This document shows positions 36,772 to 56,308 of a stretch of 64,000 nt of DNA, piece by piece. A program made the translations under genes and the position numbers. Position 1 is the first letter of the stretch. Each line of letters opens with the position of its first letter. This DNA comes from Bdellovibrionales bacterium. Its GTDB lineage: Bacteria; Bdellovibrionota; Bdellovibrionia; Bdellovibrionales; CAYMLA01. The notes under the pieces were generated by a model. It saw nothing but the letters and a program-made list of their open reading frames with translations, searched no databases and was not told the origin of the DNA. The stretch covers positions 2,080,001-2,144,000 of the forward strand of contig OZ244239.1 of NCBI GenBank assembly GCA_965217115.1. The letters are read 5' to 3'.

Positions 36772-37869
36772 ATGATGGATGGAAAGGTTTTTTTTCTGAT
36801 AGCGATAGCTCTGGTCTCTTTTAAAAGTCATGTCTCTCTTGGAGGTATTGATGACTATGGAGAGGTGGATGCTTATTTTAGACGAATTCAAAGGGAGGCG
36901 GATGTTGAAGATGCAAAAACTCTCACTCCCCAGGAGCGTTACCAGGAGAGATTAATTGTTTTTACGAGGGGAGAGCCCGCAGATTTTGATTCTGAGGGTT
37001 ATCTTGAATTAGGGGCATTAACAGGTCAAAAGACTGTTTTCAGACAGAGTGGTGGCTTTGTCGGTGGCGGCGGTGGCTCTGGTGTTTTGAGAGGTGAGGA
37101 TTTTGATTTTCTAGATTTGGTTCAATTTGATGGAAATTTTCACGATGTTAAACAGAGTCATGGAAGGCATTCTTTAAACATTGATTTAGTTTCTAAGACA
37201 GAGGGCAGTAAAGGTTCTGCCAGAAAAACTCTCAAGTTACCTCTCTATGATAACTCTGGGTTATCTAAAAAAACATTGTCAGTGCAAGTGGAGTCTGATG
37301 TTGGAGGTCGAGGGCGAGAGCTTCAGAGACTCTTTAAGAAGAGTGATCCGTTTGTCCATGCAGAGAAGGTGCTTAATTCCTTTAGTATTGCATTGGCAGT
37401 TCCATCGCTTTTATTGGGGAACATCTCTTGGCATTTCACTTCTGAAGAGCCTCGAAATGGGAGAAGGTTCAATCCGAAGGGGTTGAAAGTTGATGCTTTA
37501 GAAACGGTGGGTTATCTTCACTCTGTTCCAGTGAACGGAAAAAAGAGAACATTTGTCGTTATTTCAGTTCCCCGTTGGAACAGACTTGGTTTTTTTGGGC
37601 AGGTTGGGATGATAGTTCATGAGGCGCTGCGGGTTTATCAACTCTCATCTTCCCATCCAGATCAGAAACATCATTTTTCAGAAGATTCATTACAGAGAGC
37701 CACTTCTCTGGCGACTCTGTGTCATCCAAACAGTGAAGGTCTTCGCTATTACCTATTAGCTCTTCTGTCTACTTACAATGGATACCACGGGGGAGTGGAT
37801 GGACTGGGAGTAGGTGTCACCCATGGAAAAGTCAGAGAATCTTGCCAGAGAGTTGATAGAGAAAATTAA
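36772..37869 (+). CDS. secreted hypothetical protein with poly-Gly segment and HE motif (start reassigned to ATG 36772)
   Basis: RBS AGGGGG; signal peptide; GGFVGGGGG..DFLDL; IVHEALR. Confidence 0.65.
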   Translation: MMDGKVFFLIAIALVSFKSHVSLGGIDDYGEVDAYFRRIQREADVEDAKTLTPQERYQERLIVFTRGEPADFDSEGYLELGALTGQKTVFRQSGGFVGGGGGSGVLRGEDFDFLDLVQFDGNFHDVKQSHGRHSLNIDLVSKTEGSKGSARKTLKLPLYDNSGLSKKTLSVQVESDVGGRGRELQRLFKKSDPFVHAEKVLNSFSIALAVPSLLLGNISWHFTSEEPRNGRRFNPKGLKVDALETVGYLHSVPVNGKKRTFVVISVPRWNRLGFFGQVGMIVHEALRVYQLSSSHPDQKHHFSEDSLQRATSLATLCHPNSEGLRYYLLALLSTYNGYHGGVDGLGVGVTHGKVRESCQRVDREN

Positions 37870-38690
37870 GTCCAAGGAAACAGGTCAATACTCAGTTGAT
37901 AAACCTCTGTTGGGTTTGACGTTGTGGTGACTTCCCTCTCAATCTCTTTTAAAACATTTAAAAACTTATTTCTGATTGAGTCAAAATTCTCTTGAGTTCC
38001 ATTAAAGAGAACAGAGAGAGCATACTTTTGATTCTTCGTTAAACCATCAATTCTTGAGAAGGCATTTGTTTTCATTAAAGAGTGGTACGCGTGTGTGATT
38101 GATGAGTCCTTGGAGAGAAAAAAATGGTTCTTAACAATAGAGAGCTTAGGGCCGTTTCTCTTGATAAGGTTCATTGCTTCCAGGCGGGCGAGGAAGACTT
38201 CATACTGTTGGGATGAGATATTGAGCAGGTTAAGAATTAAGCTCTGATCTTCTTTGAAGGATTTTATTCCTAGAAGGAGATGTATTAATTGAAGCTGGGG
38301 GGAGAGAAAGTACTGTTCGGAGAGGGAACTTTTGGAGTTAATAATATCTGCACTGAGATGGTCTTCAGTTCTCAATTTCTTCTCTCTAAAAGCTCTGATG
38401 GATTCTTTGAGTCTCCGTCTTCGATGGGGTAAGGAACTTCTCTGGTATTTAAAGAGCAATTCAATGAATTCAATCTCATCCCCGTTAAATTCTAGGTACT
38501 CGACAAGCAAGAAGAGCTGATCCCCACTCAGATGGGACTCCTCTTTAAAAACCTTTGAGAGATAGGAGCTTTGGATGTGGCATTTCTTTGCGATCGTTCC
38601 AAAATTAAACTCAAGCCCCCTGCCCCTCTTGAGCTGAGAGGCCTGGCGGTGAAGGACTTTTCTGTAGTCATTCGTGCTGAATATATCCAT
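37866..38690 (-). CDS. TIGR02147/DUF4423-family HTH protein
   Basis: IFSTNDYRKVL N-terminus, HTH (SSYLSKVF), C-terminal VYQLSIDLFPW. Confidence 0.8.
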   Translation of the reverse strand: MDIFSTNDYRKVLHRQASQLKRGRGLEFNFGTIAKKCHIQSSYLSKVFKEESHLSGDQLFLLVEYLEFNGDEIEFIELLFKYQRSSLPHRRRRLKESIRAFREKKLRTEDHLSADIINSKSSLSEQYFLSPQLQLIHLLLGIKSFKEDQSLILNLLNISSQQYEVFLARLEAMNLIKRNGPKLSIVKNHFFLSKDSSITHAYHSLMKTNAFSRIDGLTKNQKYALSVLFNGTQENFDSIRNKFLNVLKEIEREVTTTSNPTEVYQLSIDLFPWT

Positions 38691-39899: not shown

Positions 39900-40163
39900 A
39901 TGAAAAAGCTAATACTGTGTCTGTGTTTTTTAGGAATAGCCAGTCCATCAATGGCTGGTAGGGCTGGTGATATTTTGGGTAGTACTTGGAGTAGTGGTGA
40001 TAATAAAAGCGGGCATGAAGAAAAGATTAAAAAGATTAAAAAGCTGGAAAGTCAGATAGAGAAACAAAAGGGAGATATAGAAAAATTAGAGGAAAAAGTG
40101 GACAAAGTAGATGAAAGACTAGGTGCCCTCGTCAAACTCATATTCGGCTCTTCTTATAGGTAA
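39900..40163 (+). CDS. small secreted coiled-coil protein, truncated paralog of 38840-39277
   Basis: Near-identical signal peptide; RBS AAGGAG. Confidence 0.7.
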   Translation: MKKLILCLCFLGIASPSMAGRAGDILGSTWSSGDNKSGHEEKIKKIKKLESQIEKQKGDIEKLEEKVDKVDERLGALVKLIFGSSYR

Positions 40164-40165
40164 TA

Positions 40166-40263
40166 TTTGTGGGAAAAGCCCGAACTAGAACTATAGAAGC
40201 ACAAGGGATAATACTTATTTGTGCAAGATCACTTCCTGCAAAGACGACACCGAGGGAAGTTAG
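40166..40263 (+). pseudogene. disconnected remnant of the Cys-domain coding tail of the 39900 gene
   Basis: Reads FVGKARTRT...CKITSCKDDTEGS* versus YVGRARTKT...CKIISCEKYTEGS* in the intact paralog. Confidence 0.7.
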
Positions 40264-40321
40264 TTAGTTAGGTTTTAATTAGTTAGTTAAAGTTAAAATT
40301 TTTTTATTTTAGTCATGCTGC

Positions 40322-40350
40322 AAAGGCCACTCTAGGGAGTGGTCTTTTTT
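40322..40350 (+). terminator. intrinsic terminator
   Basis: Identical to 39327-39355. Confidence 0.8.
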
Positions 40351-40559
40351 ATTGAAGGTTGGCGCAATATGATGCTACGCATTTATGCGTGGAGCTTCCT
40401 TTAAAGGGAGTGATGTTTTTGGCGTTCGTTTCACTTATTTGTAAAACATGGGTGGGGCTGAAGTGGGTTTTAAGTCTTTGACAGGGATAAGCACCTAATA
40501 TTGAATAGGTAGAGTCCCAAGAAGAGGGCCATTTAGTTTTTTTTTACACCTAGGAAACT

Positions 40560-42119
40560 ATGAGCGAAGAAGAGAAAAGAAGACTAAAGCAACAGCTTTG
40601 GAGTATCGCCAATGAGCTGCGTGGCAGAATGGCTGCGGATGAATTTAGAGACTACATCCTGGGCTTTATTTTCTACAAATACTTATCTGAAAAAATGTTA
40701 AACTATGCCAACAATCTATTGAAGGAAGATTCCAAGACGTATCTCTCCCTTGATAATGATTCCCCTGAGAGCAAAGATTTGCTTGATGCAATTAAAGAAC
40801 AGTCTGTTAGTAACCATGGTTATTTCTTAAAACCTTCTGAGTTATTTAGTGAAATTGCCAAACGGGGGAATGGGGATGGAAATAATTTTATTCTCGATGA
40901 TTTAACGCAAATCCTACGGAATATTGAGCAGAGCACAATGGGCCATGAGTCAGAGGATGATTTTGGTGATTTGTTTGAGGATATGGATTTGGCATCCACT
41001 AAATTAGGTCGAACTGAGGCTGCTAAAAACACACTTATCGCAAAAGTGCTGTCCCACCTAGATCAAATTAATTTTGATTTAGAGAATGCCAATTCAGACG
41101 TCCTAGGTGATGCCTATGAGTATCTTATTGCTCAATTTGCAGCAGGAGCGGGCAAGAAAGCGGGTGAGTTTTACACTCCTCAGCAGGTGTCTAAAATTCT
41201 TGCCAAGATTGTAACCAATGGAAAAGCCAAATTAAAGTCAGTGTATGATCCCACTTGTGGCTCAGGCTCTTTGCTATTGCGTGTGTCTAAGGAAACCGAA
41301 GTCTCTAGCTTTTATGGCCAAGAACTAAATCGCACGACTTATAACTTGGCTCGAATGAATATGATTTTACACAACATCCATTCCCGTGACTTTAACCTTA
41401 AGCAAGAAGACACCCTTGAACACCCTCAACATATTGATGAGCGGTTTGAGGCGGTGGTGGCCAACCCCCCTTTCTCAGCTGATTGGAGTGCAAACCCTCT
41501 TCATATGAATGATGATCGGTTTTCGCAATATGGTAAGCTGGCCCCGAAGACAAAAGCTGACTTTGCTTTTGTTCAACACATGATTCACAGTCTTGATGAG
41601 AATGGAACAATGGCTGTGGTATTGCCCCATGGGGTGTTATTTCGTGGGGCATCAGAGGGTCATATTAGGAGATTTTTAATTGAAGATAGAAACTTCCTTG
41701 ATGCAGTCATTGGTTTACCTGCGAATATTTTTTATGGGACAAGCATCCCCACTTGTCTCTTGGTTTTTAAAAAATGCCGTGAGGATAGTGGGAACGTTTT
41801 ATTTATTGATGCCAGCAATGAATTTACTAAAGAGAAAAATCAAAATATTCTCACCGATGGGAACGTCAACAAAATCATGGAGACCTTTAAAAATAGAAAG
41901 GCCATAGAAAAATACTCCTACTTGGCCCCATTAAGCGAAATTGAGGAAAACGGTTACAATCTAAACATCCCAAGGTATGTAGACACCTTTGAAGAGGAGA
42001 AGCCCATAGACCTTGGAGCTGTCTCTAAAGATTTAAAAAGTCTAAATAAAGAAATGGAAGCCACAGATAAAGAGATCACCAAGTTTTGTGATGAGTTGGG
42101 TATTGCCACACCGTTTTAA
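40560..42119 (+). CDS. hsdM: type I restriction-modification methyltransferase subunit M
   Basis: GEFYTPQQV, YDPTCGSGSLL, NPPF, VLPHGVLFRG, YNLNIPRYV. Confidence 0.97.
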   Translation: MSEEEKRRLKQQLWSIANELRGRMAADEFRDYILGFIFYKYLSEKMLNYANNLLKEDSKTYLSLDNDSPESKDLLDAIKEQSVSNHGYFLKPSELFSEIAKRGNGDGNNFILDDLTQILRNIEQSTMGHESEDDFGDLFEDMDLASTKLGRTEAAKNTLIAKVLSHLDQINFDLENANSDVLGDAYEYLIAQFAAGAGKKAGEFYTPQQVSKILAKIVTNGKAKLKSVYDPTCGSGSLLLRVSKETEVSSFYGQELNRTTYNLARMNMILHNIHSRDFNLKQEDTLEHPQHIDERFEAVVANPPFSADWSANPLHMNDDRFSQYGKLAPKTKADFAFVQHMIHSLDENGTMAVVLPHGVLFRGASEGHIRRFLIEDRNFLDAVIGLPANIFYGTSIPTCLLVFKKCREDSGNVLFIDASNEFTKEKNQNILTDGNVNKIMETFKNRKAIEKYSYLAPLSEIEENGYNLNIPRYVDTFEEEKPIDLGAVSKDLKSLNKEMEATDKEITKFCDELGIATPF

Positions 42120-42130
42120 AGGGGGGAGAG

Positions 42131-42547
42131 ATGGATAATGAAGAATTAGATTTAACATCTTTCTCTAGAGCAGTTGAGACGTTTAGGGTGGCACTCGATG
42201 AATACACAAAAGATGAAATCAATGATTTCGTCCGCGATGCTTGTATTCAGCGGTTTAAGTATTGTTATGATTCGTCAAAAAAGATAATAAAGCGTTATTT
42301 AAAAGGGGTTGTCGATGACCCTATGGAACTTGAGAGCATAGGTTTAGCAAACTTAATTAGAGATGCTTATACAAGAGGCTTAGTTAAACATAGTTGGGAT
42401 GTCTGGGATACGTACCGACTCAATCGCAATGCCACTTCCCATGGGTATGATGAGGCAACGGCCATCGGAATTGTTGAGGCATTGCCAGCCTTCTACCAAG
42501 AGGTCTTATTTTTATTAGAAAGGTTAGGCTCAAAAAATGAAACTTAA
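42131..42547 (+). CDS. HEPN-domain protein, HI0074/NTase substrate-binding type (putative toxin)
   Basis: RDACIQRF helix and RNATSHGY (Rx4HxY) motif; overlaps the start of the MNT-HsdS gene. Confidence 0.85.
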   Translation: MDNEELDLTSFSRAVETFRVALDEYTKDEINDFVRDACIQRFKYCYDSSKKIIKRYLKGVVDDPMELESIGLANLIRDAYTRGLVKHSWDVWDTYRLNRNATSHGYDEATAIGIVEALPAFYQEVLFLLERLGSKNET

Positions 42548-44102
42548 ATTTGATGTCACCCCTGAAGAATTCTCCATAATAAGAGATATTTTAGAGAAGA
42601 ATCTTTCCAGTCATTGCAAGGTTTGGGTATTTGGCAGTCGCGCTAAAGGCAGTGCCTTATTTAACTCGGATTTGGATGTGGCATTAGAGTGTAAAACTAA
42701 AATAGCACAAAAATTTTTAATACAATTAAAAACAGATTTTGAAGAGTCAAGACTTCCATATAAGGTGGATGTTTTAGATATAAAGAGTGTCGAACCTTAT
42801 TTTAAAGAGATCATTGATAAGCAGAAAACCCCTTTTCCCCTTGAAATAAAAAATAAAGTGCCAAAATTAAGGTTTAAGGAGTTTAGTGGGGAGTGGGAAG
42901 AAAAGAAGTATGGTGAGATGTACTCTTTTTTCACAACTAATTCACTTTCAAGAGAAAACTTAAATTATGAATATGGTAAAGTAAAAAACATTCATTATGG
43001 TGACATACATACGAAATTTACAACACTCTTTGATCTTGAAAAAGAGCAAGTCCCTTTTGTGAATAAAGGGGTAGATATTTCAAAGATAAAATCTGAAAGT
43101 TATTGTTTGGAAGGTGATTTGGTAATTGCTGATGCTTCGGAAGATTATTTAGCTATCGGAAAAACTATTGAGATAATAAATTTGAATGGTGAAAAAGTAA
43201 TAGCAGGGCTACATACCTTTTTAGCAAGGCCCAATAAGCACAAGATAGCATTGGGTTATATTAGCTATTTCCTACAGTCTTGGAAATTTAGAAAACAAAT
43301 AATGACAATTGCTCAAGGTTCAAAAGTTTTAAGTATTTCTATACCAAGACTTTCTGCAACAAAACTAACCCTACCAACCAAACCAGAACAACAAAAAATC
43401 GCCTCATTCCTAACAGCAGTGGACAGAAAAATAGCCCACCTAAATAAAAAGAAATCCTTACTTGAGAGTTATAAAAAAGGCCTAATGCAAAAAATATTCT
43501 CACAAACCATCCGCTTCAAAACCAACGACGGCAACAATTTCCCCGATTGGGAAGAAAAGAGGTTGGGGGATACATCAGAAATAGTTGGGGGAGGCACGCC
43601 TCCAACGGGTATTAAGAAATATTGGGATGGTGATATCCAATGGTTTACACCTACAGAAATCAAGAACAAGTATGTATGTAACAGCAATCGAACTATTACG
43701 CGGGCTGGGCTAGACGCATCCTCGGCAAAGTTACTGCCCAAGGGGACTCTACTTTTTTCTAGTAGGGCTACTATTGGTGAGGTGGGAATAGCGACCCAGG
43801 AATGTACAACTAATCAAGGTTTTCAGTCCTTCATTGTTAATCAAAATCATGAGCCTGAATTTTTATATAACTGGATACTCCAAAATAAGAAGAAATTTAT
43901 TAAAGGAGCTTCAGGTTCTACTTTCCTAGAAATCGGAAAGAATGAAATTAAAAGAATAGAATTAAACTTACCAATAAAACCAGAACAACAAAAAATTGCT
44001 TCATTCCTAACAGCAGTGGACAGAAAAATTGAACAATTGAATGAAAAGCAAAAATTATTTGGTGAATTTAAAAAAGCACTCCTCCAACAGATGTTTGTAT
44101 AA
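42537..44102 (+). CDS. hsdS: MNT nucleotidyltransferase fused to type I specificity subunit S
   Basis: Residues ~1-100: FGSRAKGSALFNSDLD (GSx10DxD) and LPYKVDVLD; then VPKLRFKEFSGEW, two TRDs and two PEQQKIASFL conserved repeats. Confidence 0.92.
   Translation: MKLKFDVTPEEFSIIRDILEKNLSSHCKVWVFGSRAKGSALFNSDLDVALECKTKIAQKFLIQLKTDFEESRLPYKVDVLDIKSVEPYFKEIIDKQKTPFPLEIKNKVPKLRFKEFSGEWEEKKYGEMYSFFTTNSLSRENLNYEYGKVKNIHYGDIHTKFTTLFDLEKEQVPFVNKGVDISKIKSESYCLEGDLVIADASEDYLAIGKTIEIINLNGEKVIAGLHTFLARPNKHKIALGYISYFLQSWKFRKQIMTIAQGSKVLSISIPRLSATKLTLPTKPEQQKIASFLTAVDRKIAHLNKKKSLLESYKKGLMQKIFSQTIRFKTNDGNNFPDWEEKRLGDTSEIVGGGTPPTGIKKYWDGDIQWFTPTEIKNKYVCNSNRTITRAGLDASSAKLLPKGTLLFSSRATIGEVGIATQECTTNQGFQSFIVNQNHEPEFLYNWILQNKKKFIKGASGSTFLEIGKNEIKRIELNLPIKPEQQKIASFLTAVDRKIEQLNEKQKLFGEFKKALLQQMFV
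43380..44029 (+). repeat. 53-bp direct repeat pair inside hsdS (43380-43432 and 43977-44029)
   Basis: AAACCAGAACAACAAAAAAT(C/T)GC(C/T)TCATTCCTAACAGCAGTGGACAGAAAAAT; 2 mismatches. Confidence 0.85.
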
Positions 44103-44111
44103 AGGCTGGTA

Positions 44112-44669
44112 ATGAATATGGAAAGATGTAGAAAGTGGTTAAAGTTTTTTGGGATCGGACTTATATCCCTTGTGTTAATTTACTTTCTCTGGATTTCTCT
44201 CATAGAATTATGGTGCATATTCTCCTTAGGCGATAAAGATATTAAATCTACGATAATAGGTATATTTGTCACTGCCGTTGTTTCTTTAACAGGTATTCTT
44301 ATCTCTAAAAAATTAGATAGAAAAAATCAAGAACAAAAAGATCTAAGAGACCTTAGGACCCCATCCTATGAAGAGTTTATTTCTTTTGTGTTTAAAGCAA
44401 TGTTTTCTGTAAAAAAAGGCAGGAAACCTATGGGTGTAGGGGAAATTAATAAAGAAATGGAAAGGTTGACCCCGTTACTTATAGCGCAAGCCTCTGAAAA
44501 AGTTCTCCTTGCGTATGAAAGATTCAGAGAAGAAGAAGATGATGAGATTGAAAGAATAAATACTATATTAAAGTTAGTTTTAATAATGAGGGAAGATTTA
44601 GGCTACACAAATAAAGGTATTTCTATTGAGACCCTCAAAAATATTTTTATAATAAAAGAGAGCGATTAA
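44112..44669 (+). CDS. hypothetical membrane protein (2 N-terminal TM helices plus helical domain)
   Basis: Two hydrophobic segments followed by a charged helical region; lies inside the hsd operon. Confidence 0.65.
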   Translation: MNMERCRKWLKFFGIGLISLVLIYFLWISLIELWCIFSLGDKDIKSTIIGIFVTAVVSLTGILISKKLDRKNQEQKDLRDLRTPSYEEFISFVFKAMFSVKKGRKPMGVGEINKEMERLTPLLIAQASEKVLLAYERFREEEDDEIERINTILKLVLIMREDLGYTNKGISIETLKNIFIIKESD

Positions 44670-44691
44670 AAGACACTTAATAGAGAGACCT

Positions 44692-45345
44692 ATGGATTCT
44701 TTTAAGAAGTTAATAAATGAAAATTCAATATATTTTGAGAAGATGGAGTATTATTTTGCGATCGCCCAAGAAGCTGAAGTAAATTTGAGAGACAACCCTG
44801 ATATTTCGATAGAAAGCTGTAAATCACTTATAGAAGGAGTCTCGAAGTATATTCTTAGTGTGTTATTAGCTGAAAATTATAATGATAACACTATTTCAAG
44901 AAAGAAGTTTAAAGCCATAGTAAATACCATGTTAAAAGAGGTGGCTAAACGCAGAGGAGCCATTGATGACAACCATTTTATATCCCAATGCTTGGAGTTT
45001 GTAGGGATTTTAGGTAAAACTAGAAATGACAGGGGAGACATTTGCCATGGAAGATGCTCTCCTAAGGAAGAAGTGAGTTCTCCTGAACTAGCAAAGCTTG
45101 TTTTCAGTATGACTGATGCTGTGTTGTCATATATACTAGATATTTTTTTTCAAATAGAGGACCCTCGAATCAAAGAAGAAGAATCTTACGATCATGAATC
45201 TCTTAGGGATTTCAATGATTATTTAGATGAAGAAAATCCGTTGGATGATGGCATAAGCTATAGTAAAGCTATTTTTTATCAAGACCCCATAGCGTATAAA
45301 GTAAAATATGATAATTTCTTAGACAATCAAGAGGCCAATCAATGA
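44692..45345 (+). CDS. abortive-infection Abi_C-like (HEPN-like) protein
   Basis: SIESCKSLIEGVSKYIL...LGKTRNDRGDICHGR...ELAKLV pattern; its stop overlaps the hsdR start (ATGA). Confidence 0.7.
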   Translation: MDSFKKLINENSIYFEKMEYYFAIAQEAEVNLRDNPDISIESCKSLIEGVSKYILSVLLAENYNDNTISRKKFKAIVNTMLKEVAKRRGAIDDNHFISQCLEFVGILGKTRNDRGDICHGRCSPKEEVSSPELAKLVFSMTDAVLSYILDIFFQIEDPRIKEEESYDHESLRDFNDYLDEENPLDDGISYSKAIFYQDPIAYKVKYDNFLDNQEANQ

Positions 45346-48176
45346 CAATTCAATCCGAAAATACCCTAGAGAATTTGCTTATTGAGCAGTTGGTGTCATT
45401 GGAATACGAAAAAGTGTCAGCGAACACCGAAGAGAAGCTATTGGTTAATTTAAAGACCCAGTTGGAAAAACACAACAAAACGACCTTTAGCGGGATTGAG
45501 TTTAAGCGCATTATGAACCACCTTAGCAGGGGTAGTGTTTTTGAGAAATCCAAGATTCTTAGAGACAAGTTTGTGCTTAATCGAGAAGATGGAACTAAGA
45601 GCTATATCAATTTTTTAGATAGCACACACTGGTGTCAGAACTTATTTCAAGTCACCAGTCAAGTCACCATTGAGGGGAAATACAAAAACCGTTACGATGT
45701 AACTCTTCTAATAAACGGTCTTCCCCTTGTGCAAATCGAGTTAAAGCGCAGAGGGTCAGAACTTAAAAAAGCTTTTAATCAAAATAACCGTTATCAAAGG
45801 CACTCTTTCCATGCCAATAGTGCCTTATTCGGGTATGTGCAAATATTTGTCATTTCAAATGGAGTCAATACTAAGTACTATGCCAATAATAGAGATCAAT
45901 CTTTTAAACAAACTTTTTTCTGGGCTGATAAAGACAACAGAAACATAACAAACCTGAATAAATTCACAGGGAGTTTCTTAGAGAGATGTCATATCTCAAA
46001 AATGATCTGTAGATATATCGTTTTAGCCGAGAGTGATAAAAGACCTATGGTTTTGCGTCCATATCAGTACTACGCCACTGAATTGATTCTTGATAGAGTG
46101 GTTAACTCCAATAGAAATGCTTACATCTGGCACACCACGGGGAGTGGAAAAACATTAACATCATTTAAAACTTCACAGTTACTAATGAAACTTCCGCAAG
46201 TGTATAAGGTGGTCTTTGTTGTAGATAGAAAGGATTTAGATTATCAAACCACTAAAGAATTTAATAGTTTTAGCAGTGGTAGCGTGGATGGCACAGACAA
46301 CACCCAAGCCCTGGTGAGACAATTCAACGATGATACAAAACTCATTGTCACCACCATCCAAAAGCTAAATACGGCGATCAGTAAAGAGCGATATCTGTCC
46401 ACCATGGAAAATTTAAAAGACAAGAACATCGTATTTATTCTCGATGAATGTCATCGTTCACAATTTGGAGAGACTCACCTAAAGATTACAAAGTTTTTCG
46501 AGAAAAGCCAGATGATTGGCTTCACAGGCACGCCGATATTTGCACAAAATGCTGTTGCCAATACGATTGGCAAGCGCACCACTGCCGATCTATTTGATAA
46601 ATGCCTCCATAAATATGTCATCACTGACGCGATTGCTGACGATAATGTGTTGAAATTCTCCATTGAGTATGTCGGTAGATATAGACAAAGAGAAGGCAGT
46701 GCTAATAGTATTGATATTAAAGTTGAGAATATTGACACTAAAGAGGCACTAGAATCTGATGATAGATTAGAGAAAATCACAAACTACATTATTGCAAACC
46801 ATGGTCGTAAGACACATGCTAAAGATTTTAATGCCATGCTTGCTGTGAGCGGTATTTCGACACTAACAAAGTACTATGAGCTATTTAAATCAAAAAAGGA
46901 AAGGGGTGAGCATAATCTAAAAATAGCAACCATCTTTAGTTACAGTGCCAATGAGGATGATAAAGACGCTGATGGTATTCCTGAATCAGAGGGCGCAAAT
47001 GTTGATGAGGCCAATATTAATCAGCACAGTCGAGATAAATTAGAGAGTTATATTGAAGATTACAACCAGTTATTTGGCACGAAGTTTACCACCAAGGAGT
47101 CGCAGAGTTATTATAACTATTATAATGACATTGCTAAACGAGTAAGAAACAGGGAAATTGATATTTTGCTAGTGATTAATATGTTTTTGACAGGTTTTGA
47201 TAGCCCTACACTTAACACCCTGTATGTGGATAAAAAGTTAAAGTATCATGGACTCATTCAAGCCTTTTCACGGACCAATAGGATTGTGGCTGAAAAGAAA
47301 TCCCAAGGAAATATTGTAAGTTTTAGAAATCTTAAAGAGGCCACCGATGAAGCGATCACCCTATTCTCAAATAAGGATGCCAGAGAGAAAATATTGATTC
47401 AGCCTTATGAGGAGTATGTCGAGTTGTTTAACAAAGCATTTGCAACCCTACTGGGCATAGCACCCAGTGTTAATAGCGCGGGTGCCTTAGTGACTAAGGA
47501 AGAGCAGCTAAAATTCATTAAAGCCTTTAGAGAGTTGATGCGGCTAAAGAATGTTCTCTCTGGATTTAGTGATTTTAATTTCTCAGATTTATCTATGGGA
47601 GAGCAGCAGTTCGAGGATTACAAGTCTAAGTATCTCGATTTGTATGAGGCAGTTAAGTACAGTATGGAGGATAACAGAGTATCTATACTTGATGATGTGG
47701 ATTTTGAACTGGACCTCCTCCACAGAGATGAAATCAATGTGGATTATATATTGAAGCTTCTTACTGAATACAATGGAAGCACAGAAGAACAATGGGATGA
47801 GAAGAAGGAAAATATTTTTAATCTCATATCTGGCCAAGAACACTTAAGGTCTAAGAGAGAATTAATTGAAGAATTTATCGACAATAACTTAATAAATATC
47901 TCTAACGGAGATGATATTGAGACTGAGTTTAATAAATTCTGGGAGGAACAGAAATCAAAGGAACTTACTGAGTTATGCGATGAAGAGAATTTAGACAAGC
48001 CTCGCGTTAAGAGCCTTATCGAAACCTACATCTACGATCAACGTGAGCCACTGGGCGATGATATCGCTAAAACACTACAAACCAAATTCAAATTACTAGA
48101 GCGACAAAAAGTGATCTCAAGGGTCCTTAATATGCTCATGAAGCATATTGAAAAATTCTATAACGCAAAGACCTGA
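45342..48176 (+). CDS. hsdR: type I restriction endonuclease subunit R
   Basis: DVTLLINGLPLVQIELK, HTTGSGKT, DECH, FTGTP, MFLTGFD, QAFSRTNR. Confidence 0.97.
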   Translation: MTIQSENTLENLLIEQLVSLEYEKVSANTEEKLLVNLKTQLEKHNKTTFSGIEFKRIMNHLSRGSVFEKSKILRDKFVLNREDGTKSYINFLDSTHWCQNLFQVTSQVTIEGKYKNRYDVTLLINGLPLVQIELKRRGSELKKAFNQNNRYQRHSFHANSALFGYVQIFVISNGVNTKYYANNRDQSFKQTFFWADKDNRNITNLNKFTGSFLERCHISKMICRYIVLAESDKRPMVLRPYQYYATELILDRVVNSNRNAYIWHTTGSGKTLTSFKTSQLLMKLPQVYKVVFVVDRKDLDYQTTKEFNSFSSGSVDGTDNTQALVRQFNDDTKLIVTTIQKLNTAISKERYLSTMENLKDKNIVFILDECHRSQFGETHLKITKFFEKSQMIGFTGTPIFAQNAVANTIGKRTTADLFDKCLHKYVITDAIADDNVLKFSIEYVGRYRQREGSANSIDIKVENIDTKEALESDDRLEKITNYIIANHGRKTHAKDFNAMLAVSGISTLTKYYELFKSKKERGEHNLKIATIFSYSANEDDKDADGIPESEGANVDEANINQHSRDKLESYIEDYNQLFGTKFTTKESQSYYNYYNDIAKRVRNREIDILLVINMFLTGFDSPTLNTLYVDKKLKYHGLIQAFSRTNRIVAEKKSQGNIVSFRNLKEATDEAITLFSNKDAREKILIQPYEEYVELFNKAFATLLGIAPSVNSAGALVTKEEQLKFIKAFRELMRLKNVLSGFSDFNFSDLSMGEQQFEDYKSKYLDLYEAVKYSMEDNRVSILDDVDFELDLLHRDEINVDYILKLLTEYNGSTEEQWDEKKENIFNLISGQEHLRSKRELIEEFIDNNLINISNGDDIETEFNKFWEEQKSKELTELCDEENLDKPRVKSLIETYIYDQREPLGDDIAKTLQTKFKLLERQKVISRVLNMLMKHIEKFYNAKT

Positions 48177-48260
48177 TTACTCCTAAAAAAAAGTCGAAGC
48201 CCAAACTGAGGCAGGGTCAAAGTTTATGGAGATATGCAAGAAAATAGTCACAGATACTAT

Positions 48261-50162
48261 TTAGGTGTCATTATTTTTTATATCTACTGGGTTAGACCAA
48301 ATTTTTTCTAAATTTACAGTGTCGCTATTTGGCTGATTAGCTTTATCTAAGAGATCTATAGTGGTCTTCACAGGTAAATTTGTTGCTACTCCAGCAAAAA
48401 AACAACTTCCAACTGATAAAATAGGTATGGATTCAAAAGATAGCTTGTCTAAGTAAGCAACGGCTTTATGAATTGCATTTATATCAGAATCATTTAATAA
48501 TTTGTGAATGAAATAATTATGCAACTGTGAAATCATTGTGGTTGATATATCCTGTGGCCTCTGGCTGGCGATGGTTAAAAATGTATTAAATTTTCTACCC
48601 TCTTTGATAATCTCCTCAAATATTTCTAATCTGTAATCTTTCCAACTTTCGCTCTCTCGTGCTGATTTATCCGATAGGATATTGTGAGCTTCATCAATGA
48701 TCAAATGTAATGATTTTTCTTTAAAATCTTTGTCTGCCTTATGAGTTTCATATAATTTTTTGATTATCAACAATGGCAATGTTTTTTTGATTTCTGTATT
48801 AACATCCTTCAAGTTAATAATGATTAAGTTTTTTTTATCAAAGATATCGGAGTCACTTCCTGTATTTAAAACTTTTTCAATATCTTTTTGCTTGCTCTTT
48901 AGTTTGTTGATAGCTGGCGCAATATGGTCATTTTGAGCTTTATCATTATAAACGTCATAAATTATTTGCAAATACAGGAAATGTATAAATTTTGATATAG
49001 AATCTTTTGGGAACTCATAAGTGTCAATTCTTCTATATATGTCTAACTCTTCAATATCATTATCAACTAGCTTGTGTCGGGGGTTACCATAATTATTTGG
49101 AATAAACCCTTTAGGATCTACTCCTGATCCACCACCATGCCATTCTAATCTAGCAAATATTTCTTCATCAGTTTTTTTTATTATATTTTCGAAATAGTCA
49201 AGTAATGTAAAAGCCTTATCTTTTAAGATCATGCGGTAGATTTTTTTTAGCTCAGATCTTAATGAATTTTTGAAATGGTTTAAAGATTCGTTATGCACTT
49301 TGTGTACACGTTTATATAATCTGATAGTTCTTTCTATAAAAGGCTTCTGTGTTTTTTCTGTTGCATTTGCTAAAATTGAAAGTAACTCAATGTCAATTAA
49401 ATCTTTTTCATGTAATGGAATTTTATCTTCCCCGTTCTCTGTTGCTGTGCTTAGAGTATAAACTTTTTTATTCTCTGTGATAATTTGATCTTGGTCCTCA
49501 TCCTCATCTTTTCCACCATACTCGCCGTTAAAATCTATAATTACAAACCGAGATTTTTCCTTAAAATCGTCACGTTCCTCCATGAGCTTAAAAAGTTCAT
49601 AGTATATTTTTGCTAGAGTATGGGATTTCCCACTTCCAGTATTACCAAAAATACCGATGTGGCTTGCAAATAGTTGGTTAATAGATACTTTTATTTTTTG
49701 TGCAGGTTCATCTGACAGAGAGCCGATAGTAATCGTTTTTTCATCTTCTCTATGGAACTGATGCAGTTGACGAAATTCATCTCTGTCGAGTAAATAACAA
49801 TCATTGTCAACAAGTGGCATTTCTTTTATACCTTGCCTAAACTTACTTCCTTCAAAATAACCAGCTAATGAAACTTCTAAAAACCGCTCAATATTATCCT
49901 CTTCCTTGTTATATTCTTTATGAGTAACTGCTTTAGTCCCTATAGATTCACCTTCAATTTTACCAATAATATTAGTAAATCCCTTGGTTATTTTAATGTA
50001 ACTATTAACGGAGATATTTTTTAAGACTTGACCATCAAATAAGAGATGAGATGCATTTTTGTTTTTATTAACCTTAATTCTAACAGATCTACCAGAGATG
50101 GAGTGGACTGAGCCAACTATAAAAACTGACTCCCTCTTTAATTGACTCTTGACATCACGCAT
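48261..50162 (-). CDS. herA: HerA-family ATPase (partner of Sir2); start reassigned to ATG 50162
   Basis: N-terminal HAS-barrel-like region, GNTGSGKS Walker A, LIIDEAH Walker B, ASQRP; start overlaps the Sir2 stop. Confidence 0.88.
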   Translation of the reverse strand: MRDVKSQLKRESVFIVGSVHSISGRSVRIKVNKNKNASHLLFDGQVLKNISVNSYIKITKGFTNIIGKIEGESIGTKAVTHKEYNKEEDNIERFLEVSLAGYFEGSKFRQGIKEMPLVDNDCYLLDRDEFRQLHQFHREDEKTITIGSLSDEPAQKIKVSINQLFASHIGIFGNTGSGKSHTLAKIYYELFKLMEERDDFKEKSRFVIIDFNGEYGGKDEDEDQDQIITENKKVYTLSTATENGEDKIPLHEKDLIDIELLSILANATEKTQKPFIERTIRLYKRVHKVHNESLNHFKNSLRSELKKIYRMILKDKAFTLLDYFENIIKKTDEEIFARLEWHGGGSGVDPKGFIPNNYGNPRHKLVDNDIEELDIYRRIDTYEFPKDSISKFIHFLYLQIIYDVYNDKAQNDHIAPAINKLKSKQKDIEKVLNTGSDSDIFDKKNLIIINLKDVNTEIKKTLPLLIIKKLYETHKADKDFKEKSLHLIIDEAHNILSDKSARESESWKDYRLEIFEEIIKEGRKFNTFLTIASQRPQDISTTMISQLHNYFIHKLLNDSDINAIHKAVAYLDKLSFESIPILSVGSCFFAGVATNLPVKTTIDLLDKANQPNSDTVNLEKIWSNPVDIKNNDT

Positions 50163-51279
50163 CGCTGCTATCCTCTTTTGTGGCATTCATTTTTTTAAAT
50201 ATTTGATCAGTTATTCTTTCTAAACCATAGTTATCTCCATTTTTAGGTGCGATAATTTTTATATTATGATTTTTTGATGTCTCCATTAATTCGTTAAGAT
50301 ATGCTCCACTGTCCTCTGAATAAGAAAAAACATACACTTGCAACGTTGGATTTGATCTTGCTGCTCTTTTCGTGATCTCTTTAATATGTTGGTCCTTCAT
50401 TGAGAAACCAATGACAAATAGGACAGAATTTTCTTTCTCCAATTCATTAGAATATGAGCGTAACAGTTCATAGTAGTATTTGTTTAAAACTGTCTCAGAG
50501 AACTTAGTCTCTTCAGGGTTAACAACAAGGATCTTTTTTTGATATTCTTTTAGGAAAGTTCTTTTTTTCTTTATTAAAGAACGCTCAAAATGAGACAAGT
50601 CTGAAGATAAATATATTTTCCTATTCTCATTGTTGAGATCAGACTCGTTATATTTCCAATTAACAGAGCCGTGAATTTTAAAAATATTAAATATAGGGAT
50701 TTCAGAACGTTTATCAAAATGTTGACTTCTTTGTATAATTGATTGCTTAAAATTACTCAAATCAAAAACAGGGTTCATTTTACCTAGAAAGCCATCATTA
50801 TAATGAATTTCTAAATCTTCTAATACTTTTTCAAAAAAAATATCAATATTTGTCGTGAATATATTTACCTGTCGTCCTATTACAGTTGTTTTTCTATCTA
50901 GAATGAGCTTTGATAGAGTCGTAAGGAAATTCATATAGTTCCTGTACGTTATCCATAAGCTTATCTTGTTGGGCTCAGCTTCTTCTTGTAATTTATCGTG
51001 TCTATATTTAGAGCAGGGCTCTTTGAAATCATATGAAATTATATATTTATTTGGAAGCATCACTTTTTCAAAATACTCTTTGTATTTATCTGATTTTTCG
51101 ACTGCCTTTTTTGCGTTATTTATATCGTGCTCAATATTATTTAACGTCGGAAGGCATGGCTGAGATATGCCTGATCCCATTAAGAAATTAATATTTGCAC
51201 TAGCAAATATGTCTTTGAACCTTGGCAATAAATGCTCTAATTCATCTTGAGTATTATCCTCGTCACTCACTTGAACCAC
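50155..51279 (-). CDS. SIR2-family (SIR2_2) NADase-like protein (probable GTG start at 51270)
   Basis: NFLMGSGIS, IFTTNID, KIHGSVNW, LFVIGFSMKDQH. Confidence 0.88.
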   Translation of the reverse strand: MVQVSDEDNTQDELEHLLPRFKDIFASANINFLMGSGISQPCLPTLNNIEHDINNAKKAVEKSDKYKEYFEKVMLPNKYIISYDFKEPCSKYRHDKLQEEAEPNKISLWITYRNYMNFLTTLSKLILDRKTTVIGRQVNIFTTNIDIFFEKVLEDLEIHYNDGFLGKMNPVFDLSNFKQSIIQRSQHFDKRSEIPIFNIFKIHGSVNWKYNESDLNNENRKIYLSSDLSHFERSLIKKKRTFLKEYQKKILVVNPEETKFSETVLNKYYYELLRSYSNELEKENSVLFVIGFSMKDQHIKEITKRAARSNPTLQVYVFSYSEDSGAYLNELMETSKNHNIKIIAPKNGDNYGLERITDQIFKKMNATKEDSSDA

Positions 51280-51364
51280 CTTTCTGTTGTTTTCATAAAA
51301 TAAAAAGAGACCAAAATTTTAATGACACAATTCAAAAAATAAATTGCCATCAGATAAAAATCTG

Positions 51365-51769
51365 TTAAATAATTAGGATAACTAAGGCTAAAAAGATAAT
51401 TTCTATTAAATAAAAAATAGAGAGCGTTAAAGAAAGAATTGCACTAATCCATTTGTTGTTTTTTCTAGTTAATTCAGAGAGGGTGTTCATTTTAAAATTG
51501 GTGGTTTCTTGCTTGCGGACATCATCATAGATACATCTAAAAAACCTTTCTTGCCAAAGAAAATAACCATCTAGTATCCAGAACCCTAGTATCGGGATAA
51601 AAAAACAAGTTAAAATATAAGAAGAGTTATCTTGTTTTGATATGAGTAAAATAGCCCCAGTAAGAAGCCCCATACTCCATGATTTTATATAAAAAGAATT
51701 TTGAGCGAGCCTGTTTATGATGCCTTGTATGAACTCTAAATGTTTTATTACCATCTCATTATCAGTCAC
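51365..51769 (-). CDS. small multi-TM membrane protein coupled to the TIR gene
   Basis: KHLEFIQGIINRLAQNSF..KSW and FWILDGYFLWQER; about 3 TM helices; starts 1 nt after the TIR stop. Confidence 0.75.
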   Translation of the reverse strand: MTDNEMVIKHLEFIQGIINRLAQNSFYIKSWSMGLLTGAILLISKQDNSSYILTCFFIPILGFWILDGYFLWQERFFRCIYDDVRKQETTNFKMNTLSELTRKNNKWISAILSLTLSIFYLIEIIFLALVILII

Positions 51770-51770
51770 T

Positions 51771-52421
51771 TCAAACCTCTTTACAAAGATCGTACTCTTC
51801 TTTTTTATCTCTTATACTGATGGCCTTATTTATATAACAATCTGTATCATTAATAAAATCCTTCCATTCAATACTTTTAATGTATGAACCTTTCCTATAT
51901 TTACAATGTTTACACCTAGCTGTATGTTTCTTTTTTCGATTGAACATATTATTCTTTAAAATTCCGAATAAACGACTTGTTCTAAGAGTTCGAAGATTAC
52001 AGTGGGCGCAAGTATTTTCTCTGATAAAGTAAGCATATTCTTCATTTGAGTCAGGTAAAACAACAGCAAGTATAGCATTAGTTTGGCTTGTCACGTCGTT
52101 TCTGGTAACCTTTTTTAATGAATAAGCTATCTCCCAAGGAATCCATTGATCATCTTCAGGCTTAGAATCTTCTTTCATATTTGGGGATATCAAAACGATA
52201 GTTACGCTGCTATCATAAATCTTATCTTTTAAGCGAGATTCAATAGTTTCATCCTTAAAATGACTTAGATCCTCATTGCCTTCTCCTTTATAAATGTCAT
52301 TAGTAAAACAGTTCTCCTCAAGATAATCTACGTAATCACGGGCAGTGCCATGACGTCCTTCTGGTAATTTGTAAACATCGTTATCGCGATATTTATATGA
52401 AACAAATATTTTTCGCGCCAT
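51771..52421 (-). CDS. TIR-domain protein (MTH538/DUF1863, ThsB-like)
   Basis: KIFVSYKY, SSVTIVLIS, WIPWEIAYSL with the catalytic-position Glu; extra CxxC motifs. Confidence 0.87.
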   Translation of the reverse strand: MARKIFVSYKYRDNDVYKLPEGRHGTARDYVDYLEENCFTNDIYKGEGNEDLSHFKDETIESRLKDKIYDSSVTIVLISPNMKEDSKPEDDQWIPWEIAYSLKKVTRNDVTSQTNAILAVVLPDSNEEYAYFIRENTCAHCNLRTLRTSRLFGILKNNMFNRKKKHTARCKHCKYRKGSYIKSIEWKDFINDTDCYINKAISIRDKKEEYDLCKEV

Positions 52422-52755
52422 TTCATCGCTCCGTTTTTATTTTACTGTTTTGCCTGTGAATCTCAACCTTTGAGTGTTTGCTTGATATTACATGCCCAGC
52501 TGCATTCCCACCAGAATATTATTGAAATTCCATAGGAGTGTCTCTTTTCAGTGCAAGGTTTTATTGGAGAATCGTCATTGCAGGAACACAGTATGAATAT
52601 CGAAATTGAAACGGGTGCTAGGGAAACACCAAGACGCCTCATATTGATATTAAAAGCAACCCTGCACACAGAGGGGAATAGTTATTAAGGCATCTCTACT
52701 TTTATCCGATGAATCTAGGGTGAGAGTTGTTAGTTGATTTGGGAGAGAGAGTTAG

Positions 52756-53748
52756 ATGTTTTCTAGGAAAGTTTTAATGGGGTTGTTTTTAAGTCTTTTT
52801 TTTGGATTTGTTGTGTTTGCAGATCTTAAGGAGACTGAGGTCACTCAAAAAGATCCCCTACAAGGTGATGTGGGGGCTCAGTATCATTTAGGGCTTATGT
52901 ACTATGGCGGGCAAGGGATTCCAAGGAATCATAAAACAGCTAGAGGTTTGTTCAAAAAAGCGGCCCTTCAAGGTTATGCTCCAGCTCAGAATAGCTTAGG
53001 GATTATGTACAATAGAGGGCATGGCGTCCTAAAGAATTATAAAAAAGCGGCGGCTTTGTACAGAAAGGCAGCCCTCCAAGGCTTTGTTCAAGCTCAGTAT
53101 AATTTAGGGGTTATGTACTACAATGGGCAAGGCGTTCCAAAGAATTATAAAAAAGCGGCGGCTTTGTACAGAAAGGCAGCCCTCCAAGGCTTTGTTCGAG
53201 CTCAGTATAATTTAGGGGTCATGCACTATGCTGGGGAAGGTGTTCCAAAGAGTTATAAGAAAGCCATCGGTTTGTACAAAAAGTTAGACCTTCAAGGTTA
53301 TGCTCAAGCTCAGTACAATTTAGGGGTGATGCACTATAGTGGGGAAGGCGTTCCAAAGAATTATAAAAAAGCGATGGCTTTGTACAGAAAAGCAGCCCTC
53401 CAAGGTCATGCTCCAGCTCAGTATAATTTAGGGTCCATGCACTATGGTGGGCAAGGCGTTCCAAAGAATTATAAAACAGCCGCAGGTTGGTACAAAAAAT
53501 CAGCTCTCCAAGGCGATCCCAAATCTCAGTATAATCTAGGGGTGATGCATATTGAAGGGCAGGGCGTTTCAGAGAACTATATCACAGGCTATGCTTGGCT
53601 ATTTATAGCTGCATCAAGAAAGTATCCGGCGGCGAGTCATCTTTTAAATATTTTAGAAAAGGAAATGACAAAGTCACAGATAGTTAATGCTCAGAAGCTA
53701 CTCTCAAAATTAAAGTCAAAGTCCAGAAATTTGAATTCTCTAAAATAA
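52756..53748 (+). CDS. secreted Sel1-repeat (TPR-like) protein
   Basis: Signal peptide; about 7 AQYNLGVMY..G.GVPKNYKKA repeats with 108-bp DNA period. Confidence 0.93.
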   Translation: MFSRKVLMGLFLSLFFGFVVFADLKETEVTQKDPLQGDVGAQYHLGLMYYGGQGIPRNHKTARGLFKKAALQGYAPAQNSLGIMYNRGHGVLKNYKKAAALYRKAALQGFVQAQYNLGVMYYNGQGVPKNYKKAAALYRKAALQGFVRAQYNLGVMHYAGEGVPKSYKKAIGLYKKLDLQGYAQAQYNLGVMHYSGEGVPKNYKKAMALYRKAALQGHAPAQYNLGSMHYGGQGVPKNYKTAAGWYKKSALQGDPKSQYNLGVMHIEGQGVSENYITGYAWLFIAASRKYPAASHLLNILEKEMTKSQIVNAQKLLSKLKSKSRNLNSLK

Positions 53749-53878
53749 AATATTAATTGATCCTTCTTGAACATCTGGGGGTGGGTTGTTCCGACTGAGT
53801 GATATATCAAAAAAAAGAGGATTTCTCGGGGAAATATTGGATAAAAGAAGTTTATGACAAAAGCCCCCCCTTGGGCGA

Positions 53879-54283
53879 CTAAAGGTGAATATTAAGGGTT
53901 AGTGGCAAGTTATGCAAAATCTTTTTGAGTGTTTCTCCTGTAATGTTTGTGTACCCCTCGGCTTCATACCTAGAGATCATTCTTACTGGCACATCGACTT
54001 TTCTTGCGAAAGCCTCCTTTGTTAAGTTTTCTGCAATTCTATATTTGATAGGTAATAACAAGATTTCTTCAGGCGTATCTATTTTTATTGCTTTAAGCCC
54101 TTTAGAGCAAAGTTTTTCATACTCAGAGACATCATCTTCAAGTTTTTGCTTCAGAGCTTCTGTTTGGATAACAGAGGATTTTGCAAGAATATTTTTCGCT
54201 GATTTTCTCATTTCAATAAGAGACTCAGATAAAGAATCAATTTTTTTCTTAGCTGCATTTAGTTGTCGATCACTTGTAATCAT
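53879..54283 (-). CDS. XRE-type HTH protein (antitoxin-like)
   Basis: MITSDRQL N-terminus, coiled region, then YRIAENLTKEAFARKVDVPVRMISRYEAEGY HTH. Confidence 0.75.
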   Translation of the reverse strand: MITSDRQLNAAKKKIDSLSESLIEMRKSAKNILAKSSVIQTEALKQKLEDDVSEYEKLCSKGLKAIKIDTPEEILLLPIKYRIAENLTKEAFARKVDVPVRMISRYEAEGYTNITGETLKKILHNLPLTLNIHL

Positions 54284-54293
54284 AATGCACTCC

Positions 54294-54580: not shown

Positions 54581-54630
54581 ACGATTTTTTACCCACAGAC
54601 TCTGCGGAAGAGGCACTTTTTTTATTTCTA

Positions 54631-56301: not shown

Positions 56302-56308
56302 TGTTGAA

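Follow-up and report, generated by a model that had tools for sequence, protein, structure and literature searches.

A 64,000-nucleotide stretch of a Bdellovibrionales genome (GenBank assembly GCA_965217115.1, contig OZ244239.1, positions 2,080,001 to 2,144,000; hereafter the window) carries a type I restriction-modification (R-M) operon in which a small HEPN gene lies between hsdM and hsdS, and in which the specificity subunit HsdS begins with a minimal nucleotidyltransferase (MNT) domain in the same reading frame (the fusion is written MNT::HsdS). That the two partners are a HEPN-MNT pair of the HI0074/HI0073 type is, in our judgement, highly probable. As the best overall explanation we favour, with slightly better than even confidence, a type VII toxin-antitoxin (TA) cassette resembling HepT/MntA within an EcoR124-like type I operon, where silencing of the toxin would be coupled to expression of the operon and lead to addiction. 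A type VII cassette hard-wired into the R-M operon is considered most likely because both partners keep their catalytic residues, and the toxin its acceptor Tyr, almost without variation. HEPN-MNT pairs, single chains of MNT and HEPN, and TA systems inside type I operons are known, and what appears to be new is the MNT domain fused to HsdS: no description of an MNT-HsdS or MNT-HsdR fusion was found in full-text literature searches aimed at the fusion, with a drawn example being possible in Figures 4 and 5 of PMC3710099.

The 138-amino-acid product of the HEPN gene was assigned to the Pfam family NTase_sub_bind (PF08780, 2.3e-24, 86 bits against a cut-off of 31.8) and to the NCBIfam HI0074 family (TIGR01987, 61.6 bits against a cut-off of 55.8), and its sequence matches among Protein Data Bank (PDB) entries were HI0074 (1jog, 2.9e-12) and the HEPN protein of Legionella pneumophila (8yuf/8xdj, 2-3e-7). 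Tyr106 of its Rx4HxY motif is the predicted AMP acceptor. The 521-amino-acid protein that follows contains Polbeta (PF18765, residues 15-96, 4.9e-11) and Methylase_S (PF01420, 7.6e-47, in two stretches); its N-terminal 108 residues match HI0073 (1no5, 3.7e-13), and its HsdS core matches 1yf2 (6.6e-57) and EcoR124II HsdS (7bst, 5e-10). An AlphaFold2 model of the fusion with 45 homologues (mean predicted local distance difference test score, pLDDT, of 88.5; predicted template modelling score, pTM, of 0.66) consisted of a folded domain at residues 1-100, a lower-confidence linker (blocks in 101-120, pLDDT of 61 and 74) and a complete HsdS, whose core helices span residues 282-321 and 481-520. In Foldseek the N-terminal domain of the model was matched to HI0073 (1no5, template modelling (TM) score of 0.88, root-mean-square deviation of 1.4 Å over 96 columns), to the L. 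pneumophila MNT (MNT-Lpg, 8xeo, TM score of 0.84) and also to MntA, and the rest of the model to HsdS of M. jannaschii, EcoKI and EcoR124I (1yf2, 2y7c and 7bst). Against the MntA equivalog NF047752 the window MNT scored 39.2 bits, with a cut-off of 60, and this putative antitoxin forms residues 1-100 of a 521-residue HsdS, not a separate small protein. The original prediction, made from the DNA letters, had described a 138-residue RNATSHGY gene between hsdM and hsdS that overlaps the hsdS start, an MNT with an exact GSx10DxD motif in the first ~100 residues of hsdS, in frame with a complete HsdS having two target-recognition domains (TRDs), and a HEPN/MNT pair; the open reading frames (ORFs) and motif coordinates agree with the first, Pfam, PDB matches and the model with the second, and family, sequence and fold matches place the pair in the HI0074/HI0073 type.

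Conservation was examined in both partners. In an alignment of 45 fusions, G33, S34, D45 and D47 of the GSx10DxD motif and the third Asp, D78, were invariant (45 of 45), as were R35 and V77, and the motif together with D78 was kept in all 16 fusions from the genome loci described below. The junction residues F100, P109, L111, R112 and F113 were also invariant, and the TRDs vary freely. The length of the MNT-HsdS linker differs among homologues, and four fusions (P0032, P0033, P0039 and P0041) have long low-complexity inserts between MNT and HsdS (e.g. YPHPNPLPEGEG...), so that linker length seems free to vary. For the HEPN partner, 43 proteins preceding MNT::HsdS, the window protein included, were aligned, 42 of which have a residue at the Glu position of helix 2. 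The acceptor Tyr was kept in all 43, the motif Arg and the motif His each in 40 of 43, the helix-2 Gln in 40 of 43 and the helix-2 Glu in 41 of 42. From this near-complete retention of motif residues, the HsdS-linked HEPN family as a whole looks like an active, regulated RNase. Two relatives had unusual chains, P0187 with NTase_sub_bind then Polbeta in 242 residues, and P0149 with a C-terminal piece of HEPN, Polbeta and Methylase_S joined in a single ORF; either start codons were called wrongly or read-through has produced triple fusions.

The architecture recurs widely. With residues 1-150 as the query, 48 other proteins containing both Polbeta and Methylase_S were found, with identities of 44-66% over these first 150 residues. 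When 1.84 billion cluster representatives were searched with only the MNT domain and without a profile, 2,799 matches at E<=1e-3 were obtained; at least 89 of the best 150 representatives at 50% identity were fusions (75 of 150 matched the window's HsdS core by phmmer, and Methylase_S was detected by Pfam in 14 of 30 further longer matches scanned), a lower bound because the seven shortest 'other' matches were left unscanned, and 38 of the 150 were 125 residues or shorter. Genome loci, 26 in number, were taken from one-genome-per-species contigs, and in 16 of them hsdM and a HEPN gene precede a fused ORF that begins with MNT; the HsdS core was detected in 14 and the contig ends in 2, and hsdR lies downstream in 11 of the 14. 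These loci come from Bacteroidota, Campylobacterota, Alpha-, Beta-, Gamma- and Zetaproteobacteria, Spirochaetia, Nitrospinales and Fibrobacteria (Owenweeksia, Arcobacter, Sulfurimonas, Thioglobus, Marinobacterium, Thermohalobaculum, Nitrosomonadaceae and Mariprofundaceae among the taxa). The metagenome loci, which are the best 80 of 185 relatives, held 85 MNT-bearing ORFs, 82 of them directly downstream of a HEPN gene (exceptions: L034, L072 and L089, the contig ending just upstream in the latter two), and 27 of the 28 MNT::HsdS ORFs among them had an upstream HEPN gene; L033 of the metagenome set and L004 of the genome set are one and the same contig, and further duplicates are possible. The recurring order across many phyla was hsdM-HEPN-MNT::hsdS-(cargo)-hsdR, and the fusions carry the public annotation 'restriction endonuclease subunit S'. 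At the level of sequence, these comparisons show the layout to be that of an old, widespread and horizontally moving family. Since the nearest relatives of the window operon are in other phyla, it was acquired horizontally; a search of 60 genomes from its own family or order yielded no close orthologue of the HEPN protein, the best match having 36% identity. In the cultured species Zymomonas mobilis, plasmid pZMOB01 of strain ATCC 10988 (NC_017180.1; L121/L122, 30878-32470 and 3-5154) encodes a methyltransferase, an HI0074-family HEPN protein, an MNT-fused subunit S and HsdR.

We also considered whether the fusion is an assembly artefact or a private loss of a stop codon. The window belongs to a single closed contig of 2,170,531 bases (99.4% complete). 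In run X1 a single Logan contig covers 41900-44300 with 0 differences; the junction is bridged in X2 (42319-42928) and X3 (42611-42952), and at the codon of Lys43 contigs from X2, X3 and X4 all agree with the assembly. Because the runs X1-X4 come from one sample of one study, possibly the source of the assembly, their agreement is a consistency check and not independent proof. As had been proposed for checking, the junction was thus found to be without frameshift or stop in the ORF, in the DNA reading and in the Logan contigs, and the search for MNT and Methylase_S fusions with an upstream HEPN gene yielded many, in genomes and in metagenomes. The artefact or one-off stop-codon loss that would have undone the original prediction does not fit dozens of independent fusions with a conserved junction; we regard its likelihood as negligible, and it is ruled out by this recurrence.

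The proposed mechanism draws on studied relatives and on the anatomy of the operon. MntA polyadenylylates Tyr104 of HepT through its GSX10DXD motif (PMC7641770), and the short MNT of L. pneumophila poly-AMPylates its HEPN partner (PMC11586414). Judging from these relatives, the window HEPN protein would be a Mg2+-dependent RNase, and the MNT domain would silence it by adding AMP to Tyr106. The HEPN ORF and the MNT::HsdS ORF overlap by 11 nt, and an overlap of 4-17 nt between the HEPN stop and the fusion start is seen both in the window and at 13 of the 16 genome loci; from this anatomy HEPN would be translated first, with translation of MNT::HsdS coupled to it. The window genome contains a single PF08780 match and a single Polbeta match above cut-off, and the supply of antitoxin would equal the supply of HsdS, the genome's only antitoxin being made as part of that subunit. 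Given this HEPN-first coupled translation and a sole antitoxin within HsdS, silencing would depend on continued expression of the R-M operon. With silencing tied to expression in this manner, loss of the operon would be difficult (addiction), and an abortive back-up could result when operon expression is shut off; the fusion would hard-wire a link for which other operons use a separate MNT gene.

Several observations weigh against this explanation, and the first concerns the toxin of the window itself. Its helix 2 reads QRFK, that is, Gln40 is kept and Lys43 stands where the IQxFE metal site has Glu. In the L. pneumophila HEPN, Gln44 and Glu47 bind the catalytic Mg2+, the mutations Q44A and E47A reduced RNase activity and rescued growth of E. 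coli, and R98A and H103A had little effect (PMC11586414, Jin et al. 2024). Lys43 corresponds to this Glu47 and is the only Lys among the 42 aligned HEPNs, in keeping with the earlier suggestion that QRFK might attenuate the toxin. The window toxin is probably weakened by this E43K substitution, which corresponds to one G-to-A change, as judged across ~25% identity, and the local cassette may be disarmed, because Lys occupies the position of a Glu which, when changed to Ala in the closest homologue studied, allows growth again. Degraded motifs were also found in the HsdS-linked HEPNs of L005, L009 and L012. In L009 hsdM is separated from the HEPN-MNT::hsdS pair by an additional HEPN gene and a 66-residue MNT fragment (L009:5022-5595); the arrangement reads as a tandem duplication in decay, the second HEPN being without Q, R and H.

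Further points against it come from variant layouts. In L020, a metagenome-assembled genome (MAG), hsdM and an intact HEPN gene are followed by an MNT that stops after ~52 residues, ~270 nt of unrelated sequence and an unfused hsdS (L020:5544-7685), and the 1.1-Mb assembly yielded no second MNT. The antitoxin seems to have been cut when hsdS was replaced, and an intact HEPN beside a truncated MNT argues against obligate toxicity of HEPN unless the MAG is chimeric or incomplete. In the plasmid pAP1447-1 of Acetobacter ascendens (L123, NZ_CP021525.1 285854-292659) the order is hsdM, HEPN, a free 105-residue MNT, hsdS and hsdR, with all junctions overlapping or abutting and the end of MNT directly adjoining the hsdS start; since MNT occupies this operon position unfused, the covalent link is optional for the arrangement. 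In 11 metagenome loci a HEPN gene is followed by MNT fused to PurF (L069, L076, L088, L090, L091, L095, L096, L097, L098, L100 and L102; six confirmed by Pfam as Polbeta + GATase + PRTase, five assigned by equal size and layout), with PurL upstream in the three loci scanned and purD nearby in one, so that the layout of HEPN followed by an MNT fusion is not specific to R-M. As a lead only, deletion of the plasmid gene hsdSp in Z. mobilis ZM4 left growth normal, with doubling times of 82.0 versus 78.5 min (PMC8432527). In the same source the ZM4 HsdS has two CDD superfamilies and the gene number x027 is skipped between hsdM and hsdS; that ZM4 hsdSp is an MNT fusion was not confirmed, two primer-derived patterns being absent from pZMOB01.

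Two side observations concern these variants. In L034 (1-2167) hsdM is directly followed by MNT::hsdS with no HEPN gene, which reads as an antitoxin-only remnant. In the MNT::PurF proteins (e.g. L088:4558-6782), a full amidophosphoribosyltransferase (GATase_6/7 + Pribosyltran) is present, and at the MNT-PurF junction, ...FDKLRE[EH]CGVMA, the catalytic Cys of PurF sits behind MNT and the linker. If PurF undergoes maturation by N-terminal processing, MNT would be released from the fusion.

The decay of HEPN motifs beside an intact MNT, in the window (Lys43) as in L005, L009 and L012, and the toleration in L020 of an intact HEPN beside a truncated MNT would also suit a reading without any TA function, in which HEPN is a substrate-binding partner, as first conceived for HI0073/HI0074, and the nucleotidyltransferase modifies an R-M subunit or nucleic acid, thereby regulating restriction or modification; the PDB titles, moreover, name the family a two-protein nucleotidyltransferase. 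This reading has to explain why the HsdS-linked HEPNs keep the Tyr without exception and the metal-site Glu in all but one, which fits a regulated RNase, and the experimentally studied HEPN/MNT pairs that we consulted consist of a toxin and an AMPylating antitoxin (PMC11586414, PMC7641770); we consider it very improbable.

The variety of partners raises the alternative of a selfish TA cassette with a functionally neutral fusion, which hitch-hikes in mobile or indispensable operons and has no mechanistic link to restriction. With the toxin gene first and a short MNT, lacking the C-terminal helix, last, loss of a stop codon would easily join MNT to the next gene. In line with this, a HEPN gene lies directly upstream of 34 of 36 short MNT ORFs in the metagenome loci; HEPN-first stand-alone pairs, their genes overlapping, also occur in L017, L018, L021, L022, L023, L025 and pZA1001; the partners comprise HsdS of more than one family, HsdR and PurF; and the Acetobacter operon provides an unfused intermediate. 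On a tree of MNT sequences, at least 6 changes of the fused label fall on starred branches, and the overall minimum is 18. On the other hand, a shuffled label gave a mean of 37.7 changes, which means that the fused forms are strongly clustered; the share of fusions among the 150 nearest clusters, with their conserved FPL...VPxLRF junction, exceeds what neutral accidents would be expected to produce; and the catalytic residues persist throughout. How many such events took place is itself uncertain, since the tree of 105 columns is poorly resolved (66 of 154 inner branches unresolved); it was therefore used only for the clustering of the fused forms and for the separate clade of HsdR-fused MNTs, not for counting origins. 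Taken together, a selfish cassette of this kind is unlikely but credible.

Regarding HsdR, MNT::HsdR was found in 8 loci (L011, L013, L016, L037, L039, L041, L042 and L046; confirmed by Pfam in L011, L013, L016 and L039), 7 of them with their own HEPN gene before the fusion and L016 without, and the HsdR-fused MNTs form a separate long-branched clade with a support of 100. Operons that have MNT::HsdR with its own HEPN hold two HEPN/MNT modules, one on HsdS and one on HsdR. Such loci could be accommodated by a reading, on balance unlikely, in which MNT is a portable antitoxin tag that turns HsdS, and in some operons HsdR, into antitoxins with cognate HEPNs; the state of the complex would gate AMPylation, and loss of the complex, or its attack by anti-restriction proteins, would unleash the RNases.

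A related possibility, put forward in the original prediction, is a guard resembling PrrC, where antitoxin activity depends on the assembled M2S1 or R2M2S1 complex, and where a phage anti-restriction protein, by binding or distorting this complex, stops AMPylation and frees the RNase, leading to abortive infection. The cassette lies in an EcoR124-like operon, which is the host type of prrC (PMC3710099, PMC12707154), and restraint of R-M-linked HEPN RNases by R-M subunits is a published hypothesis (PMC3710099). The MNT::HsdR loci imply that both complex-specific subunits can be tagged, and fusions outnumber free forms among the nearest relatives. The model, however, gives a separately folded MNT on a lower-confidence linker (at the pTM stated above), and no contact between MNT and the rest of the complex is evident; the unfused version occupies the same position, the same fusion logic is found with PurF, and the toxin of the window is probably attenuated. 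In addition, AMPylation is covalent, so release of the toxin would require either de-AMPylation or new toxin synthesis, neither of which is evident. The unfused operon, the HsdR and PurF fusions and L020 leave this guard reading somewhat weakened, and we regard it as distinctly unlikely.

Comparison with known systems sets the window family apart in several respects. The best sequence and fold matches for both partners, HI0073/HI0074 of Haemophilus influenzae (1no5, 1jog), are a pair of small separate proteins whose function was given as that of a two-protein nucleotidyltransferase, with no R-M fusion. In the Shewanella oneidensis genome the antitoxin gene mntA presumably precedes hepT. The HepT/MntA pair of this species shares GSx10DxD, Rx4HxY and polyadenylylation of Tyr as the neutralising step with the window pair; however, MntA is longer than the window MNT, with a C-terminal helix needed for binding, and the expression construct was named mntA-hepT, whereas the toxin gene comes first in the window family (PMC7641770). 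The type VII module of L. pneumophila (8xem, 8xdj, 8xeo, 8xeh; PMC11586414) has the same HEPN family, IQxFE helix region and Rx4HxY, and a short MNT likewise without the long C-terminal helix; its MNT is a free protein of 108 residues, whereas the window MNT is an N-terminal domain of HsdS with a toxin whose metal-site Glu is replaced by Lys, and the text of that paper available to us describes no R-M context.

PrrC of the type IC system EcoprrI is, like the window HEPN, an RNase encoded in an EcoR124-like operon and thought to be silenced by R-M proteins. PrrC is a large ATP-binding cassette (ABC)-ATPase-HEPN protein without an antitoxin enzyme, encoded between hsdS and hsdR, whereas the window HEPN has 138 residues, a single PF08780 domain in place of the N-terminal ABC-type NTPase and C-terminal HEPN of PrrC/RloC, and a putative AMPylating antitoxin joined to HsdS. 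At least 16 HEPN clades occur in R-M operons, with PrrC as the model, and the same survey names nucleases, helicases and ATPases, but no methylases, as the only fusion partners of R-M-linked HEPN domains (PMC3710099). DarTG2 in the type I operon of enteropathogenic E. coli is also a complete enzymatic TA pair inside the operon, but of another family, between hsdS and hsdR and unfused to Hsd subunits (PMC12255303). FhepTA joins toxin and antitoxin to each other in a single chain (PMC13000451), whereas the window joins the antitoxin to HsdS. In HINPO (bioRxiv 10.64898/2026.10.19.760177) a HEPN gene likewise lies upstream of a protein with an N-terminal Pol-beta-type nucleotidyltransferase, but this domain is described as catalytically inactive and its partner is ParA instead of HsdS.

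The architecture is common and occurs in many phyla, yet its proteins are labelled simply 'restriction endonuclease subunit S'. The addictiveness of type I R-M systems is considered weak, since cells in which methylation is lost are protected by restriction alleviation. If the type VII reading is true, a built-in toxin with its sole antitoxin inside HsdS would give type I operons a stabilising or back-up role; if MNT is a portable antitoxin tag, it would make the downstream gene (HsdS, HsdR or PurF) costly to silence or delete. The fusion is a clean system for asking whether tethering to a complex gates an enzymatic antitoxin, with the fused operon of Zymomonas pZMOB01, in a cultured host, and the unfused operon of Acetobacter pAP1447-1 as natural comparators.

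Table 1. Positions of the features discussed, in the window unless a locus is given
Feature	Position	Strand	Basis
hsdM, methyltransferase subunit of the type I system, at the head of the operon	40560..42119	+	TIGR00497 458 bits (cut-off 242.75); N6_Mtase, HsdM_N
HEPN gene for a predicted RNase toxin of 138 aa, HI0074 / NTase_sub_bind family	42131..42547	+	PF08780, TIGR01987
Codon AAG, Lys43 of QRFK, at the Mg2+-binding Glu position	42257..42259	+	alignment to L. pneumophila HEPN E47
RNATSHGY, Rx4HxY motif, R99/H104/Y106	42425..42448	+	read from sequence
MNT::HsdS ORF, 521 aa	42537..44102	+	Polbeta PF18765 + Methylase_S PF01420
MNT domain, residues 1-100 of the 521-aa protein, predicted adenylyltransferase antitoxin	42537..42836	+	PF18765, 1no5
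GSx10DxD motif, G33-S34-x10-D45-x-D47	42633..42677	+	read from sequence
MNT-HsdS linker, residues 101-120, with conserved FPL...VPxLRF junction	42837..42896	+	lowest-pLDDT blocks of the AlphaFold2 model
HsdS core, two TRDs and two long conserved helices	42897..44102	+	Methylase_S, 1yf2
Cargo gene, 185 aa, two hydrophobic segments	44112..44669	+	hydropathy; without a family in the libraries
Abi_C-like cargo gene, 217 aa, in the hsdS-hsdR slot	44692..45345	+	Abi_C 7e-4, below the Pfam cut-off
hsdR, EcoR124-like restriction subunit	45342..48176	+	TIGR00348 494.8 bits; HSDR_N, SWI2_SNF2, T1R_D3-like, EcoR124_C
HerA with SIR2_2 protein (50155-51279)	within 48261-57484	-	PADLOC HerA 7.8e-182
ThsB-TIR-like protein	51771-52421	-	
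DUF6932 with helix-turn-helix protein	54294-54650	-	
GmrSD	54631-56361	-	
C-5 cytosine methylase	56309-57484	-	
MNT::HsdR	L011:7511-11766, L013:8246-11784, L016:7699-10911, L039:6561-10204		

The operon genes form a packed run on the + strand (40560-48176), with intergenic gaps of 9-22 nt or overlaps of 4-11 nt in the ORF list; hsdM and the HEPN gene are spaced by 11 nt, and the hsdR start overlaps the 217-residue gene by 4 nt. A promoter and terminator scan of 39900-48400 was uninformative, the 21 promoter-like sites counted being fewer than the 26 expected. In Pfam and NCBIfam searches both HsdM and HsdR proved full length, and with a two-TRD HsdS and a motor-domain HsdR bearing EcoR124_C, all in a single operon, the system can be assigned by gene content to the EcoR124-like type I R-M systems. 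No PADLOC model matches the HEPN, 185-residue or 217-residue ORF, and the 185-residue cargo protein has no match in Pfam, NCBIfam or PADLOC and only unnamed clusters in the Atlas. The 217-residue protein has a conserved RNxxxDIxHGR segment, and its homologues fill the hsdS-hsdR slot in L013 and L046, the one in L013 scoring 39.5 bits for Abi_C, above the cut-off; it is possibly a second HEPN-type or RNase effector of the operon.

The operon sits in a defence island, whose further genes are listed in Table 1. Two DUF4423 paralogues (37866-38690 and 60562-61377) flank the defence genes, with a tRNA-Gly gene (62820-62896) just beyond, and these are possible borders of the island. Upstream of hsdM, two small ORFs (38840 and 39900) have the same signal-peptide-like start.

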